Origin: a bacterium
GTDB taxonomy: Bacteria > Patescibacteriota > Minisyncoccia > UBA6257 > WO2-44-18
Direction: 5' to 3'
DNA: 62,857 bases
Assembly (NCBI GenBank): GCA_030689595.1
Contig: JAUYHP010000018.1
Span: 1-62,857 of the forward strand
Shown here: in pieces, positions 6,125 to 61,698 of the stretch
How the letters are laid out: every line of letters begins with the position of its first letter
Numbering within the stretch: the stretch's first letter is position 1
Program-made: the position numbers and the translations under genes
The notes under the pieces: generated by a model
The model's input: the letters and a program-made list of their open reading frames with translations, nothing else
What the model was told of the DNA's origin: nothing
Databases searched by the model: none

Positions 6125-6205
6125 GCCCGGGTGGTGGAATGGCAGACACGCACGACTCAAAATCGTGTGCCGCAAGGCATGAGAGTTCGAGTCTCTCCCC
6201 GGGCA
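6125..6205 (+). tRNA. tRNA-Leu (anticodon CAA)
   Basis: Hand-folded cloverleaf: acceptor gcccggg/cccgggc, anticodon arm cacga-ctCAAaa-tcgtg, long variable arm, and T arm gagag-ttcgagt-ctctc. CCA is not encoded. Confidence 0.9.
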
Positions 6206-6381: not shown

Positions 6382-6462
6382 GGGCGAGTGGCGGAATGGC
6401 AGACGCACTAGCTTTAGGAGCTAGCGCCGCAAGGCGTGTGGGTTCAAGTCCCACCTCGCCCA
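6382..6462 (+). tRNA. tRNA-Leu (anticodon TAG)
   Basis: Acceptor gggcgag/ctcgccc, anticodon arm ctagc-ttTAGga-gctag, long variable arm, and T arm gtggg-ttcaagt-cccac. Confidence 0.9.
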
Positions 6463-6486: not shown

Positions 6487-7926
6487 ATGGAAAATAAACG
6501 ATCCCCAGTAGTGGTAGTTATGGGCCACGTTGATCATGGCAAGACTGCGCTATTGGATTACATTCGGAAAACTTCGGTTGTAGCTAAAGAGGCTGGTGGC
6601 ATAACCCAGTCTATTGGCGCATATGAAATAAAACACAACGACCAACGCATAACCTTCATTGACACTCCTGGCCACCAAGCCTTTTCCAAAATGAGAGCTC
6701 GGGGAACTAAAGCTGCCGATATCGCTATTTTAGTCGTATCAGCTGACGATGGCGTGAAACTACAAACTAAAGAAGCAATCCAAATCGCCAAAGAAGCTAA
6801 AATACCATTTGTGGTAGCTATAAATAAAATCGACAAGCCTAACGCCGATATAGAAAAAACTAAGAACGACCTCATGAACGAAAGCGTCCTACTTGAAGGC
6901 CATGGCGGCAATGTTAGCTTCCAGCTCATTTCTGCCAAAACCGGCGAAGGCATCGATGAATTATTGGATCTCGTCTTATTAGTCGCTGAAGCGGAAGTAG
7001 CTGATTTATCTTTTGACCCAGATGCACCAACTAAAGGCTTTATATTGGAGTCGCAGATGGACAAACGTCAGGGCATAATTGCCAATGTCATAGTTAAAAA
7101 TGGCACCTTGCGGACCGGCGACGCTATAGCCGCTGGCTCTGCTGGTGGGAAAATAAAAATACTAAGAGATTTCTTGGGAGAAAAGATCAATGAAGCTATC
7201 CCATCCAGCCCAGTTCAAATATTAGGTTTCGATGCGCTACCAGGAGTTGGTGAGCATTTTATGAGTGGGGGCAGCGTCATGCCAACAAAGCCAATAACAG
7301 AAACTCCGAAGCCGATGACTGAAGCGACTTCCGAAGATCAAAACAAGACAACTATCAATCTAATATTGAAAGGTGATGTTTCGGGATCCATCGAAGCATT
7401 GGCTGAAGTGATCAAGAGTTTACCAATTTTAGAAAATGTTGATTTGAGAATCATAAACGAATCCGTTGGAGAAATTAGCGATGGCGATGTAAAGTCGGCC
7501 GTCGCTTCCAAGGCCATAATCATCGGATTTGGTGTAAAAGTTAACAAGGCTGCTGAGAACTTAAGCAAAGCCCAAAATGTGAAAATAATAAAATCAGATA
7601 TAATCTATGAATTAATCAAAGCCGTAGGAGACGAGATGGCAACATCTCAAAGGGGCTACTCCAAGGGTATTCTGGAAATATTGGCCATATTCGGCAAAAA
7701 AGATAATGACAAACAAATCGTTGGCGGCAAAGTAACAGAAGGCGAAATTAGCAATAATGCGACTATAGAAATTGAAAGAAAAGGCGAAATGGTTGGTAGC
7801 GGCAAGATAGTTAATCTACAGCAAAGCAGAAAGGATGCGGCTGTCGTTGCTGCTGGAAACGAATCCGGGCTATTGGTGGCCTCAGACACAGAAATAAAAG
7901 TAGGAGATCATTTGATTTTAAGATAA
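6487..7926 (+). CDS. infB: translation initiation factor IF-2 (short form starting at the G domain)
   Basis: GHVDHGKT, DTPGH and NKID G-motifs. The track ORF start at 6436 is a translation of the tRNA; the ATG at 6487 (MENKRSPVVVVMGHVDHGKT) gives 479 aa. Confidence 0.9.
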   Translation: MENKRSPVVVVMGHVDHGKTALLDYIRKTSVVAKEAGGITQSIGAYEIKHNDQRITFIDTPGHQAFSKMRARGTKAADIAILVVSADDGVKLQTKEAIQIAKEAKIPFVVAINKIDKPNADIEKTKNDLMNESVLLEGHGGNVSFQLISAKTGEGIDELLDLVLLVAEAEVADLSFDPDAPTKGFILESQMDKRQGIIANVIVKNGTLRTGDAIAAGSAGGKIKILRDFLGEKINEAIPSSPVQILGFDALPGVGEHFMSGGSVMPTKPITETPKPMTEATSEDQNKTTINLILKGDVSGSIEALAEVIKSLPILENVDLRIINESVGEISDGDVKSAVASKAIIIGFGVKVNKAAENLSKAQNVKIIKSDIIYELIKAVGDEMATSQRGYSKGILEILAIFGKKDNDKQIVGGKVTEGEISNNATIEIERKGEMVGSGKIVNLQQSRKDAAVVAAGNESGLLVASDTEIKVGDHLILR

Positions 7927-9556: not shown

Positions 9557-10786
9557 ATGCAACTCTTTCATCTATACCACCATCATCATGCCCGGCAGAA
9601 CTACCCATTAAAGCACATCTCTGATTTTTGGCTATTTGAAATATCGGTTTGGTTACACGTAATCGGCAGATCTTTGATAGCAGTATTTATCCCCATCCTA
9701 TTATTAACTTCGGGTTATCCAATCGGTAGCGTCATTATCTATTATCTTATTTTCAACATCTTCGACACTCCATTAAACTTCTTAGCCGATAAATTAACCC
9801 GAAAACTGGGAGCTCGTTTGGTCGTCACTCTGGGCACTCTTAGCGCAGTGGCATTTTTCATAGCATTATCATTTGCCGATCCCGCTAATTCCTATTTTCT
9901 AGTCGCCTTGGCCGCACTCGCTGCTCTATATGATTCCCTCTATTGGGTGTCTCATATGTATATCTTTATAGAAAGCACGCGCGAATCAGATGATAGCGGT
10001 AAATATACTGGTATTTTCTACAGCATTCGTTATCTCGGTAGTCTTATGGGCCCAGCGGTCGGCGCCCTCATCTTGATATTATTTTCCCAACAAGCACTAA
10101 TAGTCGCCAGCGTGGCTATTTTATTGGTTTCTATTATACCGCTGACGAGAATAAAAAAACTACACGACAAACCTCAAGAAAAATTAGTGCCGCTTAAACA
10201 ATTCCTAAACACACCCAATGAAAAGAAAAATTATTTTACCATGTGGCTTTATGGCATACACAAAGCCAATGAGGGTATCCTGTGGCCACTATTCATATTC
10301 TTGCTATTCGGCACCATTAACTCCGTGGTATGGGTGCCGATCATAATATCGGTGAGTAGCATAATTTTTTCCATGATGGCTGGCCACATTAGGCGGCAAA
10401 ATCGAGAACGCATGATTATATTAGGAAGCGGCGTGGTGGCTATGATCTGGATCCTGCGCCTAGTTTTGGAAACACCTATGTTTTATTACGTCAGCATCTT
10501 TATAGTTGGCCTGTTCTCATTGCTGGTTGATGTGCCTTTGGACAGCAATATCGCTCAACGAGCTAAATCAATGGATTCTCTATCGGCTTCAACTTATCGC
10601 AATCTATTTTCTATGTCATCACGCATAATTCTTTTCGGCTTGTTAGCTCTATTGGTCAATGTTTTCAATGTGAGCTTTATGTTCGCCTCACTAAGTCTGT
10701 TTATAGTACTGGCTCTAAACCAAATTTTCATTAGCAAAAGCAGGGTCCCAATCTCAACCATACCAGCCGAAGCAGTGCCAAAATAA
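9557..10786 (+). CDS. multi-pass membrane transporter (MFS-like)
   Basis: 409 aa with roughly 10-12 hydrophobic helices. No catalytic motifs were recognised. Confidence 0.5.
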   Translation: MQLFHLYHHHHARQNYPLKHISDFWLFEISVWLHVIGRSLIAVFIPILLLTSGYPIGSVIIYYLIFNIFDTPLNFLADKLTRKLGARLVVTLGTLSAVAFFIALSFADPANSYFLVALAALAALYDSLYWVSHMYIFIESTRESDDSGKYTGIFYSIRYLGSLMGPAVGALILILFSQQALIVASVAILLVSIIPLTRIKKLHDKPQEKLVPLKQFLNTPNEKKNYFTMWLYGIHKANEGILWPLFIFLLFGTINSVVWVPIIISVSSIIFSMMAGHIRRQNRERMIILGSGVVAMIWILRLVLETPMFYYVSIFIVGLFSLLVDVPLDSNIAQRAKSMDSLSASTYRNLFSMSSRIILFGLLALLVNVFNVSFMFASLSLFIVLALNQIFISKSRVPISTIPAEAVPK

Positions 10787-10901
10787 AAAAATCCCGCCGA
10801 AGGCGGGACTCCGAATTCGTTTGAAAAAATGGGGGGAAATCAGTGGGACGCGCTTTGCGCCACCCATGCGTCCGTCGGTCAAAAGCCAACGAGTCAAATT
10901 C

Positions 10902-10986
10902 TGGTGCCCAAGGCGGGATTCGAACCCGCATGCCTTTCGGCGCTACCACCTCAAGGTAGTGAGTCTGCCAATTCCTCCACCTGGGC
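10902..10986 (-). tRNA. tRNA-Leu (anticodon GAG), CCA encoded
   Basis: The reverse complement folds with acceptor gcccagg/cttgggc, anticodon arm ctacc-ttGAGgt-ggtag, long variable arm, T arm gcggg-ttcgaat-cccgc, and a terminal acca. Confidence 0.9.
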
Positions 10987-11026
10987 CTATGGATATTATA
11001 CCAAGTCCCGACATTATCCGCCGCGG

Positions 11027-11347
11027 CTAAACTCCGAGCTTCTTGCGGGTTTCTTTCTTGGAACGAGAGCGAATGTAATAGATTTTTGAACGGCCAACTT
11101 TTTTAGGCGAACTTATAATTTCTACCTTATCAATCATTGGCGAATGTACTGGATAGACTTTCTCCACCCCAACTCCGGCAACAGTAGAGCGCACCGTAAA
11201 GCTGGCGCCAGATTCGCTGCCGTGTTTGCGTCCCAAAACTAAGCCCTCGAATCTACTTAATCGAGTTTTGTCTTTTTCTTTTATCTTTTCCCATACACGG
11301 ACTTTAGCTCCGGCTTTTATTCTCTTGGCTATTTCTACTGGAATCAT
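11027..11347 (-). CDS. rplS: 50S ribosomal protein L19
   Basis: 106 aa with an L19-like core (RLSRFEGLVLGRKHGSESGASFTVR...GVEKVYPVHSPMIDKVEI). Confidence 0.9.
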   Translation of the reverse strand: MIPVEIAKRIKAGAKVRVWEKIKEKDKTRLSRFEGLVLGRKHGSESGASFTVRSTVAGVGVEKVYPVHSPMIDKVEIISSPKKVGRSKIYYIRSRSKKETRKKLGV

Positions 11348-17441: not shown

Positions 17442-17516
17442 GCGCGTTTAGCTCAGTGGTAGAGCGTTTCATTGACATTGAAAAGGTCGGAGGTTCAATC
17501 CCTCCAACGCGCACCA
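17442..17516 (+). tRNA. tRNA-Val (anticodon GAC), CCA encoded
   Basis: 75-nt cloverleaf: acceptor gcgcgtt/aacgcgc, anticodon arm tttca-ttGACat-tgaaa, and T arm ggagg-ttcaatc-cctcc. Confidence 0.9.
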
Positions 17517-35345: not shown

Positions 35346-36185
35346 TTAAAGCACGCCAAAAACTTTTTTGTTGGTTTCAAAAACAGTAGCCACAACATCA
35401 TCATAATCTATGCCTTTAATCTCGGCCAATTTACGAGCAGTTTCTATTATATAAGATGGCTCGTTACGCCGCCCGCGATATGATGCCGGGGCGACATAAG
35501 GCGCATCAGTCTCCAGCAGAATTCTATCTAGAGGCATACATTTGATGACTTCGTCGTAGTCACGAGCGAAGGTAATGACCCCACCGAAAGTAAAATAAAA
35601 ACCAGCTCCCAATAATTTTTGGGTAACGCCCAAAGAACCTACATAGAAATGAACTATGGGCAATATCTTGAGCTGACTTCTGGCCACCAATAAATCCTCA
35701 TAGGCGTCGTCGCTACCCTTCGACGGGCGACAGTGTATCATTAATGGCTTATTTACTTCATTGGCTATTTGAACTTGTTGAAAAAATATGTCTATCTGTT
35801 GTGACTTATTTTTTAGATTGTCTTCTCTCTCGCCCACTAATCGATAATAATCAAAACCGCACTCACCAACAGCTACCACTTTTGGGTGGGTGGCTAATTT
35901 TTTAAATTCGCTGGCGTCAAATTTTTCTGGTTCAGCGTTAGATTGCTCTTTCTCGTCGTGATGCCAAGTTGTCGATCCAATGTGGGACGGATGGAAGCCA
36001 ACAGCTGCCCAGACATCGTCAGGATATTTTTCAGCTAACTCTATAGCTGACTTTGATGTTGAAAGCTGAGTGCCAACGGCGATCATTTTCACATTAGCTG
36101 ATTGAGCGCGCTTAATAACCTCATCACGATCATTGTCGTAAGCTGGAAAATGGACATGAGTATGAGAATCGAAAATTGATGGCAT
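35346..36185 (-). CDS. TatD-family metal-dependent hydrolase
   Basis: N-terminal DSHTHV motif and the conserved His/Glu/Asp pattern of the TatD family. Confidence 0.9.
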   Translation of the reverse strand: MPSIFDSHTHVHFPAYDNDRDEVIKRAQSANVKMIAVGTQLSTSKSAIELAEKYPDDVWAAVGFHPSHIGSTTWHHDEKEQSNAEPEKFDASEFKKLATHPKVVAVGECGFDYYRLVGEREDNLKNKSQQIDIFFQQVQIANEVNKPLMIHCRPSKGSDDAYEDLLVARSQLKILPIVHFYVGSLGVTQKLLGAGFYFTFGGVITFARDYDEVIKCMPLDRILLETDAPYVAPASYRGRRNEPSYIIETARKLAEIKGIDYDDVVATVFETNKKVFGVL

Positions 36186-36252
36186 AGTGATTATATGACT
36201 CCGGCGTTGCAGCTGGAGCCACTACATCCGATGCATTGTCAGAGCGTCGGGG

Positions 36253-36280
36253 TTGACAGATTTATTGTATCTGCTATACT
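36253..36280 (+). promoter_or_regulatory. consensus sigma70-like promoter of the large GC-rich RNA
   Basis: TTGACA (36253-36258), a 16-nt spacer, then TATACT (36275-36280). Confidence 0.6.
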
Positions 36281-36286
36281 TACCGT

Positions 36287-37003
36287 TATCAACCTAGGAC
36301 TTTGAAAAACATGGATGCTGTAGCCATCATGCCGCAGCTGACGAGGACGCTTCTAAGGGGACGTTTTTCTATCTGCGTGAACCCCTTGATTGCTGCAGCA
36401 TCCACCAATATTGGTCAACTCATGGTCAGAATCGGATAGGCCTTTCAGGTGATCCGACAAAACAGCGCAAGCTGGCGATCAGCATTGACCTCTAGGGCCT
36501 GCACCCGCCTGCCACCACGAGCTTAACCACAGCTCACCTGCGCCGAAGCAGCGGGTGCGGGCCCACCATATTAATAAGGGTCTGTAGTTTAATCAAAAAC
36601 CGCTCCTTAGGGGGCGATGTCGACCTACGAAATCGACCGGACCCACCACCAAAACTTGCCCCACACTTGCCACGCCTAGTCTCACGAGCCAGGGTACGCC
36701 TTGGATGAGCTAGGGCCAAGTGTGGGGCACCAATTCATGCCCCCATCGTCTAAACCTAAGATCTCCGTTATAATATAACGGAGGAATGCAGGTCGTGAAT
36801 CCTGCTGGGGGCTCCAATAAAAGGCGGAGCGAGGGCACAAACGCCCTCGAATTGCACGCGGGCACAGGCGCACTCAAGGCTTCGCCACAACACTGGCGAC
36901 AGCAGTTGGGTGATTGCATCGGAACTCCGAGGGACAGTTCCGCTCTCGCTCCGCCCCCATCACAAGCCTCGATACGTTGGATGACGTATCGAGGCATTTT
37001 TTT
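36287..37003 (+). ncRNA. unclassified large structured RNA candidate (about 715 nt)
   Basis: The region has no credible ORF and is GC-rich relative to its flanks. Long-range helices: 36313-36323/36393-36403, 36495-36508/36551-36564, 36658-36669/36717-36728 and 36823-36833/36945-36955. It is bounded by a promoter and a terminator. Confidence 0.5.
36966..37003 (+). terminator. intrinsic terminator
   Basis: 12-bp stem gcctcgatacgt/acgtatcgaggc followed by a T7 run. Confidence 0.8.
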
Positions 37004-37116
37004 ATTCACTTCTCAATATAAACAATCCCGCGATCGACCACTTGCCCACCATAGTAAAATCTTTTAAGATGCTAGTAGATTTTTGATAATCGATTTCGAC
37101 TCGAAAGGAGAAACAA

Positions 37117-37785
37117 TTGGTGGCCAAAAAGGCTAAACGATACTGGGATCTAGTACTAACTGATTGGGATGGCACTTTGCACGATAGTATGATGCTATAT
37201 TATGGCAGCGCTATTAAAATCTTTAAACATTTTGGCCTAAAACCACCATCTCTCGAAACTTATCGAGAAGAAATCTCCTCTGATTATATGGAGTCATTTT
37301 ATTGGAAAAATGGTGTGCCACGAGATGCACCTATGGATGTGTTAAATAAAATTAACTTCCGGTTTTTCCGCAAGCACTGGAACGAGGCTAGATTGCATAA
37401 TGGGACCAAGGATTTTTTGAGGACTTGTCAAGAATTACAGATACCAGTGGTTATTGTTAGCGCCGGCGCAACTTCAGTCATCATGCATAAATTGGTTGGT
37501 TCTAGAATTAATAATTTCATTGATGATATCAGAGCCGATATCCGTGGCAATAAAACATCTATTCTACAAGAAATTCTTGGGCAACGCGGCATTGCTCCTA
37601 GTAGATCACTATTCATTGAAGATTCTTGTGACGGCATTGAATCCGGAAAAGAAATTGGTATAAAAACAGTTGGCTGTACCTATGGCTTCCACACCCCAGA
37701 GCGCATAATCGCCACCAAGCCTGACCTTGTTATTGATGATGTGCGCCAAATGGTGAACGTCATCAAAAATGGGAGGCTACTATGA
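37117..37785 (+). CDS. HAD-IA family phosphatase (phosphoglycolate phosphatase-like)
   Basis: TTG start with an AAGGAG SD. Motif I is TDWDGTLHDS, motif II VVIVSAG, motif IV FIEDSCDGIESG. Confidence 0.75.
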   Translation: MVAKKAKRYWDLVLTDWDGTLHDSMMLYYGSAIKIFKHFGLKPPSLETYREEISSDYMESFYWKNGVPRDAPMDVLNKINFRFFRKHWNEARLHNGTKDFLRTCQELQIPVVIVSAGATSVIMHKLVGSRINNFIDDIRADIRGNKTSILQEILGQRGIAPSRSLFIEDSCDGIESGKEIGIKTVGCTYGFHTPERIIATKPDLVIDDVRQMVNVIKNGRLL

Positions 37786-38357
37786 AAGCGCTGATAGCTT
37801 TGACTAGTGAACAATTAGGCGGCAAAGAAACTGCTGGTAAATGGTTGATTGAGCTAGCTAAGCAAGATGGTTTTACCGTAAGCCAACATCGTTTTTCCGA
37901 TGTCCTCAATGATATTTTAGCACTACTTGATATTGATAAGACAAGATCGAATCTGCAGCAACTAGCCGCAGCACTTGATGACGCCTTCGGCAAAGGCACG
38001 ATAACCAAAGCTGTGAAAGCTAGGTTCGAAAATGATAATGCCGTGATATTAATTATCGACGGCGTGCGTTGGCCAAGCGATGAGATTATGGTGCGCAATA
38101 TAACTAACTCTATCCTGATCTATATTACCGCCGATCAGCATCTGCGCTGGCAAAGAACGCGCCAACGCTGTCGCAGCGGTGAGGAAAATAAAAGCTTGGC
38201 CGAATTCTGCCAAGATGAATTGGCTAGAACTGAGGTGGATATTCCACAAATTGGTTCTCGAGCTGACATAAAAATAGAAAACAATGGAACGCTTGAAGAA
38301 TTCGATGCTAAAATTGAATCACTCTGGCAAGACATAAAGCGACGCTTCAGATTATAA
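37782..38357 (+). CDS. hypothetical P-loop kinase-like protein (degenerate Walker A)
   Basis: 191 aa with LGGKETAGKW near the N-terminus and an IIDGVRWPSDE segment reminiscent of dNMP-kinase-type folds. Its start overlaps the HAD stop (ATGA). Confidence 0.35.
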   Translation: MKALIALTSEQLGGKETAGKWLIELAKQDGFTVSQHRFSDVLNDILALLDIDKTRSNLQQLAAALDDAFGKGTITKAVKARFENDNAVILIIDGVRWPSDEIMVRNITNSILIYITADQHLRWQRTRQRCRSGEENKSLAEFCQDELARTEVDIPQIGSRADIKIENNGTLEEFDAKIESLWQDIKRRFRL

Positions 38358-38410: not shown

Positions 38411-38439
38411 TTGACATAAAACTATAAGCAAAATAATAT
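38411..38439 (+). promoter_or_regulatory. sigma70-like promoter of the second GC-rich RNA
   Basis: TTGACA (38411-38416), a 17-nt spacer, then TAATAT (38434-38439). Confidence 0.5.
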
Positions 38440-38445
38440 TTCTAT

Positions 38446-38705
38446 GTGGCTTTGCTAGGCGCTCGAGTGCGCATCTAGAGCGTCATAGCAGGGGAGAACT
38501 TCGGTGGACGATAGAGCTCTGTCGCGATCTCGCCCAGCGAGACCGGCAGCCTAGCTAAACAGTAGAGAGCGGCCTGCTCGTATTGCTGCCTAGGTATGCT
38601 GGAGCAACCATCTCTCGGCTAAGCGCTAAACGGCCAACAAGCGCTACCCATCTCCTCTCTTTTTTATATTCTATAGCACCGCTCCCACAAAATGTGGGAG
38701 TTTTT
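38446..38705 (+). ncRNA. unclassified GC-rich small RNA candidate (about 260 nt)
   Basis: ORF-free, GC-rich stretch with local hairpins (e.g. tctcgc-cca-gcgaga at 38528-38542). A promoter lies upstream and a hairpin plus T-run at 38682-38705. No plus-strand gene lies downstream. Confidence 0.3.
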
Positions 38706-41061: not shown

Positions 41062-41961
41062 TTAATGGATTAATGATTTGATTTTAGCAAGATTTTTCTG
41101 GAATGATTCCCGAGTTTTCGCCTCGAGATTAAGACGCAACAGATTCTCGGTGTTGGACGGACGTAAGCTAAACCACCAATCGCTAAATTCCATTCTCAAT
41201 CCGTCTAATCGCGATATTTTATCAGCTCGTTTTTGATAATTCTGTTCCAGCCCGTGGAGAACGGTCATTTTATCATCAATCTTGAAATTTATCTCTCCAG
41301 AGCAATAATATCGCGGCATCTCATCTATCCAAATAGCTAAATCTACTGGCAGGCTGGCTGCGGCGTTTATGAATTCTATTGCTCCTAAAATACCCGAATC
41401 CCAGACAGCATCACGAAAACGAAAATAATAATGGCCAGAGATCTCAGCACCAAATCTAATCTTCTTCTGCGTCATAAGTTTTTTTACGAAATAGTGTCCG
41501 ACGCGCGAATTAACAACCTTCTTGTCGTCCGCTTTAATGATTTCTCTAGCTAGATAACCATGACGCACATCTAAAACAATTGGCCCTTTGAATCTCTGGC
41601 TTATCAAAGCCGATGTTATGTCACCGCTGACGAATCTTCCTCGGCTATCAAGAAAAAATACTCGGTCACCATCGGCATCAAAGATAGCTCCTAGATCTGC
41701 CTTCCGCCCATGAACGGCCTGTCGCAAATCATTAAGCGCATCCTTGGCCATAGGATCGGGGCCGTGGGCCGGAAACCGCCCATCAGGTTTTTCATTGATC
41801 AAAAATATTTCTAATTTCCCACTAACTAAATTTCTCAATATCTTGATGACTGCCCCAGTAGTCCCGTTAGAACAATCAAAAACTACGCGTAGTTTCCTGC
41901 GCGGCTGTAGGTGCTTTGCCAGAAAATCGACATAAGTTTTGATATAATTCGTCTTAGCCAT
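41062..41961 (-). CDS. phosphomannomutase/phosphoglucomutase, domains II-IV fragment
   Basis: FDADGDR metal-binding loop and C-terminal RPSNTE phosphate-binding loop. It is in frame with 41977-42396, separated by one TAA plus 15 nt. Confidence 0.75.
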   Translation of the reverse strand: MAKTNYIKTYVDFLAKHLQPRRKLRVVFDCSNGTTGAVIKILRNLVSGKLEIFLINEKPDGRFPAHGPDPMAKDALNDLRQAVHGRKADLGAIFDADGDRVFFLDSRGRFVSGDITSALISQRFKGPIVLDVRHGYLAREIIKADDKKVVNSRVGHYFVKKLMTQKKIRFGAEISGHYYFRFRDAVWDSGILGAIEFINAAASLPVDLAIWIDEMPRYYCSGEINFKIDDKMTVLHGLEQNYQKRADKISRLDGLRMEFSDWWFSLRPSNTENLLRLNLEAKTRESFQKNLAKIKSLIH

Positions 41962-41976
41962 GAATAACCTAGTAAC

Positions 41977-42396
41977 TTAATTACTTATTAACTTTTTTAT
42001 ATCCCGTCCACTAATCGGCTTGGCTTTGGCACCAACTACTTTCAAGCCATTGTAATTCTTGGGATTGTGAGAAGCGGTAATCATAATGCCTCCGGTGGAT
42101 TTTAAATGATCTACCAAAAAATAGAGCATGGGAGTTGTAACCTGACCTATGGCCACGGCTTTCGGTTTACCCGCTCCGCTCTCGCTTGAGCGAGGCGAGT
42201 GGGTTTTAGATTTTAGATTGGTTAAAATAGCCTTATATAAACTTGGCGAGCTTAGACGGGCGTCGTAGCCAACCACAATTTCCCCCTTTTTGAAATGTCG
42301 AACCAAGGCCTGCGCTATTTTACCGACTACCTGTTCATTTATTTCTCTTGGGTAAGCGCCGCGAACATCATAGGCCTTAAATATAGTAGGCTTCAT
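41977..42396 (-). CDS. phosphomannomutase/phosphoglucomutase, domain I fragment
   Basis: Contains the active-site serine loop TASHNPKNYNGLK. Confidence 0.75.
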   Translation of the reverse strand: MKPTIFKAYDVRGAYPREINEQVVGKIAQALVRHFKKGEIVVGYDARLSSPSLYKAILTNLKSKTHSPRSSESGAGKPKAVAIGQVTTPMLYFLVDHLKSTGGIMITASHNPKNYNGLKVVGAKAKPISGRDIKKLISN

Positions 42397-61626: not shown

Positions 61627-61698
61627 GGTGCCCATAGTTTAGCGGCAAAACTCCGCTCTGTGGCAGCGGCGTCACGGGTTCGACTCCCGTTGGGCACC
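61627..61698 (+). tRNA. tRNA-His (anticodon GTG) with encoded G-1
   Basis: The extra 5' G pairs with C73. Acceptor gtgccca/tgggcac, anticodon arm ccgct-ctGTGgc-agcgg, and T arm acggg-ttcgact-cccgt. Confidence 0.85.

Follow-up and report, generated by a model that had tools for sequence, protein, structure and literature searches.

Between the tatD gene and a gene for a HAD-IA hydrolase, a 62,857-nucleotide (nt) stretch of DNA from a Patescibacterium (GCA_030689595.1, contig JAUYHP010000018.1; referred to as the window) carries a non-coding RNA unit of about 715 nt on the + strand (36253-37003) that lacks any credible open reading frame (ORF). Its predicted fold is a chain of seven modules, each closed by its own stem, and six of these are followed directly by the sequence N-CCA. 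The best explanation, to which we give a probability of roughly 0.55, is that this unit is a dedicated non-coding operon for tRNA-derived, non-decoding acceptor-stem mimics, which are probably cut from the transcript by RNase P.

Transcription signals and fold of the RNA unit

The intergenic stretch between tatD (35346-36185, - strand) and the HAD-IA gene (37117-37785, + strand) contains no credible gene. An earlier note on this DNA had described a near-consensus promoter, a terminator, and between them a GC-rich region with no credible coding frame, and each of these features is present, with small corrections. The promoter of the RNA (36253-36280, + strand) comprises TTGACA (36253-36258), a 16-nt spacer with a TG extension, and TATACT (36275-36280), and it matches 11 of 12 consensus positions in a promoter scan. 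Transcription would start near 36287-36289, giving a putative 5' leader of approximately 25 nt (36288-36312, + strand) that ends in AAACAU right before the first G (G1) of the first module. The intrinsic terminator (36966-37003, + strand; fold z = -8.0) has a 13-bp stem by scan (36966-36995; 12 bp in the earlier note), a 4-nt loop, an A, and a run of seven T's. G+C content is 0.50 to 0.60 over 36200-36999, compared with 0.38 to 0.455 in the flanks and 0.432 in the whole window. All ORFs in the unit are short and overlap on both strands, and two of them (36786-37067, + strand; 36710-37009, - strand), not one as previously noted, cross the terminator. None of these ORFs has a Pfam match, and none is conserved in the syntenic relative described below (best tblastn E = 0.08).

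The + strand folds with a minimum free energy (MFE) of -311 kcal/mol, compared with -232 ± 8 kcal/mol for dinucleotide shuffles (z = -9.8); the z score of the - strand is -5.0. Together, these features leave very little doubt that a structured RNA gene is present at this locus. Its promoter overlaps, back to back, the divergent promoter of tatD (TTGATA-17-TACAAT; 36264-36292, - strand), which lies outside the RNA proper and is reported here as context; the two overlapping promoters may compete for RNA polymerase.

In the MFE fold, the RNA forms a linear chain of seven stem-closed modules (A to G, all on the + strand), arranged head to tail and followed by the terminator, and we infer that all seven are carried on one primary transcript. 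The modules range from 67 to 133 nt in length, and each opens with a G after a single-stranded, mostly A/U-rich spacer of 4 to 9 nt. Closing stems measure 6 to 14 bp (only that of module B is shorter than 7 bp), and the module-closing pairs have probabilities (p) of approximately 1.0 in the full-length ensemble (0.77 for module B). Four helices reported in the earlier note were recovered independently as inverted repeats (I2 to I5) and occur in the MFE fold with p of approximately 1.0; these helices are real, but they are not long-range as had been supposed, since each closes a separate module. No direct sequence repeats were found among the modules.

Modules A, C, and E, with closing stems of 12 to 14 bp, are minihelix-like hairpins. 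Module A (36313-36403, I2) is an irregular hairpin of 91 nt with a 12-bp closing stem (closing pairs, p = 1.00), followed by ACCA (36404-36407), the CCA of which is unpaired with a probability of 0.85. The 70-nt module C (36495-36564, I3; then ACCA, 36565-36568) has a 14-bp closing stem with one G·U pair around two small hairpins, and module E (36658-36728, I4; then ACCA, 36729-36732) is a 71-nt hairpin with a perfect 12-bp closing stem, or 13 bp if a flanking U-A pair is included. Modules D and F are cloverleaves. In module D (36578-36644, 67 nt; then ACCACCA, 36645-36651), UA joins a 7-bp acceptor stem to a D stem of 4 bp (GUUU/AAAC); where a tRNA has its anticodon arm, this module has a 6-bp arm capped by a UUAG tetraloop, and its T-like stem of 5 bp carries a loop of 9 nt. 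The acceptor stem of module F (36739-36812, 74 nt; then UCCA, 36813-36816) likewise measures 7 bp (GCCCCCA/UGGGGGC) and is followed by UC and the D stem (GUCU/AGAU). Next come a 9-bp arm capped by a 3-nt loop, then 4 nt of variable region, and finally the T-like arm (GCAGG-UCGUGAAU-CCUGC). Module B (36413-36490, 78 nt) is branched and has a 6-bp closing stem; it is followed by UCUA (to 36494), which is one transition away from UCCA. Finally, module G (36823-36955, I5; then CCCA, 36956-36959) is a four-way junction of 133 nt with a closing stem of 11 to 14 bp and three inner hairpins.

At the junction of modules A and B, ACCAAUAUUGGU (36404-36415) is a perfect 12-nt palindrome that could form a small hairpin or mediate dimerization. 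Module D opens with GGG and is followed by an encoded ACCACCA (36645-36651); ACCACCA is the degradation tag placed on unstable tRNAs by CCA-adding enzymes, and the resemblance may be a coincidence. Past the terminator, CACTTGCCCACCATAGTAA (37039-37057) is 76% like the 5' strand of module E and 93% like the end of module C with its ACCA spacer (GCCCACCATATTAA), and may be either a relic of a lost eighth module or the product of chance.

The N-CCA rule and likeness to tRNA

The earlier note had correctly seen an ACCA after the helix strand at 36551-36564 but had missed its recurrence. Read by eye from the module list, N-CCA lies directly 3' of six of the seven window modules and of four of the five modules in a syntenic counterpart, L009 (GCA_030698695.1, contig JAUYMR010000009.1). 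A count based on the MFE folds, with CCA within ±1 nt of a domain end, returns the same totals, and dinucleotide shuffles never exceed one. The CCA bases of the window modules are unpaired with ensemble probabilities of 0.7 to 1.0; in L009, the corresponding values are 0.68 to 1.0 for the two C's and approximately 0.4 for the terminal A of two modules. We then applied a strict descriptor (G1, a 7-bp stem with at least four G-C pairs and at most one G·U pair, a span of 55 to 165 nt, and N-CCA) to both strands of 219 kb of sequence. It returned 26 matches: 6 in the window RNA, 4 in the L009 RNA, 2 in genuine CCA-encoding tRNAs, and 14 scattered elsewhere. For the 650-nt region that holds the six window matches, approximately 0.04 would be expected. 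In a further 1.0 Mb of unrelated loci, which gave 0.2 matches per kb, three or more matches never lined up head to tail. The tRNA operons of Escherichia coli yield the same chain signature as the RNA unit. The N-CCA rule is thus far beyond chance.

The window also contains five genuine tRNA genes (6125-6205, 6382-6462, 10905-10986, 17442-17513, and 61628-61698), only two of which (Leu-GAG and Val-GAC) encode CCA, a lower rate than that of the RNA modules (two of five versus six of seven). Because the other three lack an encoded CCA, this organism must have a CCA-adding enzyme.

Four modules, D and F from the window and E' and F' from L009, fold as cloverleaves of the form 7-2-4...5-7-N-CCA, in which a 7-bp acceptor stem, U8 and one further base, a 4-bp D stem, A14, a central arm, a variable region of 2 to 4 nt, a 5-bp T-like stem, N73, and CCA follow in this order. 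Modules A, B, C, and E do not fold in this way and are hairpins or other junctions. In our reading of the folds, no module has a 7-nt anticodon loop; the central arms instead consist of 6 bp and UUAG (D), 9 bp and AAU (F), 7 bp and GCU (E'), or 5 bp, an internal loop, 4 bp, and AUAA (F'). The T-like loops of the cloverleaf modules (UCGUGAAU, CCUACGAAA, CUAGUGA, and UUGA) depart from the UUCRANY consensus, and their D loops lack GG. Because the modules have no anticodon loop and the cloverleaves have no canonical T or D loop, none of them can decode. The same departures explain why standard detectors pass over the array: the Rfam tRNA family (RF00005; family threshold, 29 bits) does not match the modules at an E value of ≤10, even in an 89-nt search, and ARAGORN at default settings finds neither a tRNA nor a transfer-messenger RNA (tmRNA) in the unit and calls module F a tRNA only at an 80% threshold (-ps80). 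At very low thresholds, ARAGORN returned mutually inconsistent intron-containing tRNA and permuted-tmRNA calls, which we disregarded.

The kinship with tRNA is apparent when the four cloverleaf modules are compared as a group. In a MAFFT alignment made from sequence only, their acceptor and T stems fall into register and 97.9% of the cells pair (slid controls, 33 to 46%); the tested structure was derived from the same four sequences, which favors the paired percentage, while the register comes from the sequence alignment alone. Eight of the 12 aligned pairs are changed on both sides, a result reached in none of 500 shuffles. We built a covariance model, R1, solely from these four modules and searched with filters off. 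Module D, a training sequence, scores 69.4 bits, and the five window tRNAs rank immediately after the training sequences (28.4, 21.6, 18.1, 13.3, and 13.3 bits; next match, 13.1 bits). In E. coli K-12, R1 recovers 23 tRNA genes at an E value of <0.01, all of them end to end, with top scores for Gly-UCC (36.1 bits), Lys (29.5 bits), and Glu (28.7 bits) and a best non-tRNA score of approximately 13 bits. Together, these results make it highly probable that the array consists of tRNA-like N-CCA modules.

Descent from tRNA genes is the simplest reading of these sequence comparisons, which point to no single parental isoacceptor. In a reference set of 27 E. coli tRNAs (NC_000913) and the 5 tRNAs of the window, tRNA-Glu is the best match for the D arms of modules F, F', and E' (U[C/G]GUCUAA...AG[A/G]AC); for the D arm of module D (UAGUUUA...AAAAC), the best matches are tRNA-His from the window and tRNA-Asp from E. 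coli. We considered tRNA-Glu as the parent and set it aside: the D arms fit, but R1 scores E. coli tRNA-Gly(UCC), tRNA-Lys, and tRNA-Glu about equally. A specific aminoacylation identity likewise finds no case, because no module has a G3·U70 pair by our fold reading and the acceptor stems and discriminators of F and F' differ; charging by one specific aminoacyl-tRNA synthetase is therefore unlikely.

A syntenic counterpart, a processing model, and its rivals

The best matches of the window's TatD protein are 66 to 67% identical and include members of the Patescibacteria group and Candidatus Harrisonbacteria. One of the matching loci, L009 (identical to the Logan contig L004/L010), has the gene order of the window: TatD, a gap of approximately 800 nt, HAD, and methionyl-tRNA synthetase (MetRS). 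The flanking proteins are 67% (TatD) and 51% (HAD) identical to those of the window. The gap has a G+C content of 0.51 to 0.56, and in both genomes the RNA lies 10 to 15 points above the genome. It contains five modules: A' (7302-7371, then UCCA), CD' (7383-7540, then ACCA), E' (7552-7646, then GCCA), F' (7658-7738, then GCCA), and G' (7748-7845, then UCAU), followed by a terminator (7856-7875, then T6). By eye, a promoter counterpart (TTGCAT-17-TAAGAT) follows a shared GGGGTTG; with 7 of 12 consensus positions, it falls below the cutoff of the scanner. By sequence, the two RNAs are not recognizably similar, with best E values of 0.32 by blastn and 0.08 by tblastn.

The tatD promoter is identical in L009 (7283-7255, - strand), and a shared UUAUCAAYC that we had considered as a conserved RNA leader is the -35 box of this divergent promoter; for this reason TTATCAA is common to both genomes just after the -10 box of the RNA. 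Pairing between the leader and the N-CC of module F or F' was also discarded, since it spans only 3 bp, too few to count.

Other relatives lack the RNA. In L001, L003, L007, and L008 (TatD 61 to 63% identical), MetRS, sometimes small genes, and then TatD follow one another with no RNA gap, and the gaps between TatD and HAD in L012 and L016 measure 98 and 65 nt and hold no RNA. A gap of approximately 780 nt beside TatD in L005/L006 was considered as a third member and rejected, since it is A+T-rich and unrelated; in L011 (TatD identity, 66%), only 32 nt of the contig precede TatD. A blastn search of phages with the RNA returned no homologue, a genome scan with a HAD alignment returned only distant HADs (and neither the window genome nor L009 itself), and two metagenome pattern scans, with the module F core and with the conserved double-promoter region, gave no match. 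In collections of this size, degenerate module patterns with 14 to 17 specified bases would, by our estimate, match thousands of times by chance. The RNA gene is a lineage-specific insertion between two divergent promoters. The HAD subfamily is rare, with only two proteins at an E value of ≤1e-20, and it follows the RNA in both genomes. A functional link between the two was nevertheless rejected: more distant subfamily members in L012 (39%) and L016 (35%) adjoin TatD without the RNA, and the enzyme itself is an unremarkable phosphatase of the HAD-IA type.

For bacterial RNase P, an acceptor-type helix followed by a 3' RCCA is sufficient. The enzyme cuts polycistronic tRNA transcripts apart (PMC2190699) and uses the acceptor/T helix as a measure (PMC4919913). 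Substrates are bound at their 3' RCCA by the P15 loop of its RNA (PMC3299987), and non-tRNA substrates are cleaved as well if a 3' RCCA is present (PMC12710915). In the model that we favor, a single primary transcript of approximately 715 nt, with its seven modules laid out as in a CCA-encoding polycistronic tRNA precursor, would be cut by RNase P 5' of each G1. Exonucleases would then trim the short spacers back to CCA, and six or seven stable RNAs of 67 to 133 nt would be released, each with a generic acceptor stem and a free N-CCA end. That the modules are cut into separate RNAs by the tRNA-processing machinery is, on balance, what the layout suggests. Because only shape and N-CCA are conserved, a factor that reads tRNA 3' ends without sequence preference is favored as the partner. 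More speculatively, released modules may engage such a factor at the acceptor end as decoys, buffers, or minimal substrates, with RNase P, the CCA-adding enzyme, or nucleotidyltransferase or nuclease toxins aimed at the acceptor end as candidate targets, or they may serve as minimal carriers for non-ribosomal aminoacyl transfer. Any one of these specific end functions is, taken singly, unlikely, and we offer only tentatively the wider picture of a reduced-genome Patescibacterium with a strongly expressed operon whose products would be anticodon-less mimics acting off the ribosome.

Several observations weigh against this model. The RNA could act intact. Module B and the L009 module G' lack CCA, and the discriminator is a purine in 7 of the 10 N-CCA modules, with U in F and A' and C in G. 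The Rfam tRNA model scores the modules below approximately 14 bits, and as the T- and D-loop consensus is absent, the elbow contacted by the specificity domain of RNase P may be absent as well. Acceptor-stem sequence and discriminator differ between the orthologues F (U73) and F' (G73). No gene for RNase P, a CCA-adding enzyme, or another partner lies near the locus. Among the genomes examined, the RNA is present in only two, both of Patescibacteria, and the covariation consequently draws on modules paralogous to one another and on a single orthologous pair.

In the main rival reading, the RNA stays intact as a long scaffold or sponge; six single-stranded N-CCA(A/U) linkers would bind a protein or a UGG-containing RNA, and the module shapes would be historical leftovers. 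As expected of sponge RNAs, a short motif recurs in unpaired linkers and is kept while the two genomes differ in the number and sequence of their modules, and the RNA has a single promoter and a single terminator. However, every module starts with G and is closed by at least six or seven perfect pairs, with CCA exactly one nucleotide past the stem; tRNA-processing enzymes need this register, and a sponge motif would not. In addition, the descriptor cannot tell this layout from real CCA-encoding tRNA operons, and the locus has no linked gene for a candidate binding protein. The CCA register and the G1 rule therefore fit processing better, and we consider an intact sponge unlikely.

A decaying pseudo-tRNA operon without present function would account for tRNA-like modules that have no anticodon loops, for the loss of the T- and D-loop consensus in the cloverleaves, and for an RNA found in two genomes and missing from close relatives. 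However, all 12 closing stems (7 in the window and 5 in L009) pair although sequence similarity has been lost. F and F' correspond arm for arm, with changes on both sides in five of seven acceptor pairs and three of five T pairs (manual comparison), in line with the doubly changed pairs of the four-module alignment, and G and G' share a layout of closing stem, 4-bp hairpin with a 6-nt loop, long hairpin, and third hairpin. Pairing that is kept without sequence similarity argues for selection on shape and N-CCA, not on sequence, and against neutral decay. Decay would also have erased the perfect hairpins at the place of the anticodon arms, the raised G+C content, the unusually stable fold, and the promoter and terminator that are intact in both genomes, and we regard it as quite improbable.

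Still less probable is a role in cis, either as a giant leader or attenuator for HAD or in modulation of the tatD promoter by transcriptional interference. The RNA promoter does overlap the conserved tatD promoter, and HAD begins 114 to 116 nt past the terminator in both genomes. Against this, TatD and HAD are adjacent in L012 and L016 with no RNA between them, the 13-bp/T7 terminator lies between the RNA and HAD, the spacer of both genomes holds a conserved -10-like box (by eye), and promoter interference needs no 700 nt of conserved, N-CCA-punctuated structure. It is hardly credible that the unit is a diverged representative of an established large or housekeeping RNA family (RNase P RNA, tmRNA, OLE, ROOL, GOLLD, HEARO, raiA, 6S, or signal recognition particle [SRP] RNA) or that it encodes small proteins, as the length of approximately 700 nt, the ornate look, and the short ORFs on both strands might suggest. 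There is no meaningful match in Rfam 15 and no tmRNA by ARAGORN at default settings, and the ORFs lack Pfam matches, are not conserved in L009, and run into one another and into the terminator.

If the modules are released as the processing model proposes, a pool of generic acceptor ends could buffer or misdirect factors that recognize tRNA 3' ends. Patescibacteria have minimal genomes and a host-dependent biology, and the relevance would be greatest there, with minimal genomes and CCA in only two of the five window tRNA genes. The locus is also a natural test set of minimal substrates for RNase P and CCA-adding enzymes, and, with a sequence that turns over fast and a shape that is strictly kept, it shows a way in which tRNA genes can be exapted. 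A chain descriptor of the type "stem + N-CCA," used with an R1-type model, could find arrays that tRNA finders and Rfam miss.

The Pfam-scanned neighbors of 36264-37003 are housekeeping genes (GlmS, LeuRS, TatD, MetRS, phosphoglucomutase [PGM], FtsK, and RecA), with no mobile-element gene among them, and several small ORFs around the locus have no Pfam match. A 191-amino-acid gene (37782-38357, + strand) overlaps the HAD stop codon by 4 nt; its product has no Pfam match and only a weak NCBIfam match (PRK08356), and a 42% identical counterpart in L003 (2658-3215, - strand) weakly matches Pfam AAA_18 (P-loop). As L009 lacks it, this gene has no fixed association with the RNA. A second possible small RNA (38413-38705, + strand) occupies the convergent gap that separates this gene from MetRS, with a promoter-like TTGACA box at 38413, a G+C content of 0.50 to 0.54, and, near 38681-38705, a terminator-like hairpin and T run; the stability of its fold is unremarkable (z = -0.4), and it has no Rfam match at an E value of ≤10. 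The phosphoglucomutase gene is split (41062-41961 and 41977-42396, - strand), with domain I apart from domains II to IV. L009 has a 297-amino-acid gene with domains II to IV only (10225-11118), in a retrieved sequence that does not reach the position of domain I, and the split may be either genuine or a shared frameshift. The otherwise conserved TatD of L012 (3877-4902, - strand) carries two similar insertions of approximately 20 amino acids (YPHTKRAL...ARYG.GV), which suggest a small repeated insertion element within the gene.

Comparison with known RNA families and systems

The RNA was compared with the 4,227 families of Rfam 15 by cmscan, at the gathering score and at an E value of ≤10. In searches of 89 to 971 nt, no family reached its gathering score and nothing meaningful appeared at an E value of ≤10. 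The check that the earlier note had called for, against models including RNase P, tmRNA, 6S, OLE, GOLLD, ROOL, raiA, and HEARO, therefore gave no significant match, and its unsuccessful look for motifs of RNase P RNA, tmRNA, SRP RNA, and group II introns agrees with the absence of any Rfam family match; the unit is none of these, nor a 6S RNA. No covariance model of RNase P RNA, SRP RNA, 6S RNA, OLE, ROOL, GOLLD, HEARO, or raiA matched. In L009, the sole Rfam matches lie at the 3' end, over the terminator hairpin. The RNA belongs to none of these families, and it fails the anticodon-loop, T-/D-loop, and score tests for tRNA.

The likeness to OLE, GOLLD, and ROOL that the earlier note had suggested was not borne out. 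These RNAs share with the unit a length of 600 to 800 nt, a high degree of structure, and a raised G+C content in an A+T-rich genome, but they adopt one nested, multidomain architecture, in contrast to the linear chain of independent modules seen here. CsrB/RsmZ and CrcZ are also long RNAs with a short single-stranded motif between stems and a repeat number that varies between species; their motif is GGA or A-rich, whereas here N-CCA stands in fixed register after a G-started helix, and no family model matches. A ToxI-like type III toxin-antitoxin arrangement finds no support in direct repeats, of which there are none, or in the downstream gene, a HAD-IA phosphatase found without the RNA in relatives.

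Bacterial tRNA mimicry is known in the form of single domains (tmRNA, YrlA, and some leaders). A tmRNA resembles the modules in being non-decoding, with an acceptor stem, a T-like arm, a 3' ACCA, no anticodon, and maturation by RNase P (PMC3985003). It differs in having one tRNA-like domain that closes a large RNA, with pseudoknots, a tag frame, and G3·U70 for alanyl-tRNA synthetase, whereas the array has seven separate modules and shows no match to the Rfam tmRNA clan, no tmRNA by ARAGORN at default settings, no G3·U70, and no tag frame. YrlA is likewise a bacterial non-coding RNA with a non-decoding tRNA-like module (PMC4201824). That single domain is fused to a Ro60-binding stem and encoded next to rsr, whereas the array has many modules with encoded N-CCA; the array has no Rfam match to YrlA, there is no rsr or rtcB gene within about ±12 kb, and the Pfam-scanned neighbors are not Ro60-like.

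Outside bacteria, RNase P makes the MALAT1/NEAT1 cut, and in the mascRNA-type and viral cases CCA is added after transcription. mascRNA, menRNA, and the gammaherpesvirus tRNA-like RNAs resemble the modules in being cloverleaf-like and non-decoding (PMC9777231, PMC8457004, PMC6152437, PMC4337559), and the MALAT1/NEAT1 tRNA-like RNAs arise enzymatically from a longer precursor (PMC9777231). These systems are eukaryotic or viral and yield one unit per precursor, whereas the array is bacterial, has seven units in tandem, and encodes its CCA.

No such array turned up, for bacteria or for the candidate phyla radiation, in full-text searches of the literature, and we know of no cellular operon that yields a series of anticodon-less, CCA-tagged tRNA-like RNAs. 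The layout is that of a polycistronic tRNA precursor: tandem G+1 units, an acceptor-type helix, 3' N-CCA, short spacers, one promoter, and one terminator. The CCA-encoding tRNA operons of E. coli, such as lysT-valT-lysW... and leuZ-cysT-glyW, are built in the same way from head-to-tail units of G1, a 7-bp stem, and N73-CCA; they differ from the array in that standard detectors reject its modules, several of which are plain hairpins or 130-nt junctions. If the processing model is correct, this locus would be the first gene in bacteria whose dedicated output is a set of tRNA mimics that do not decode.

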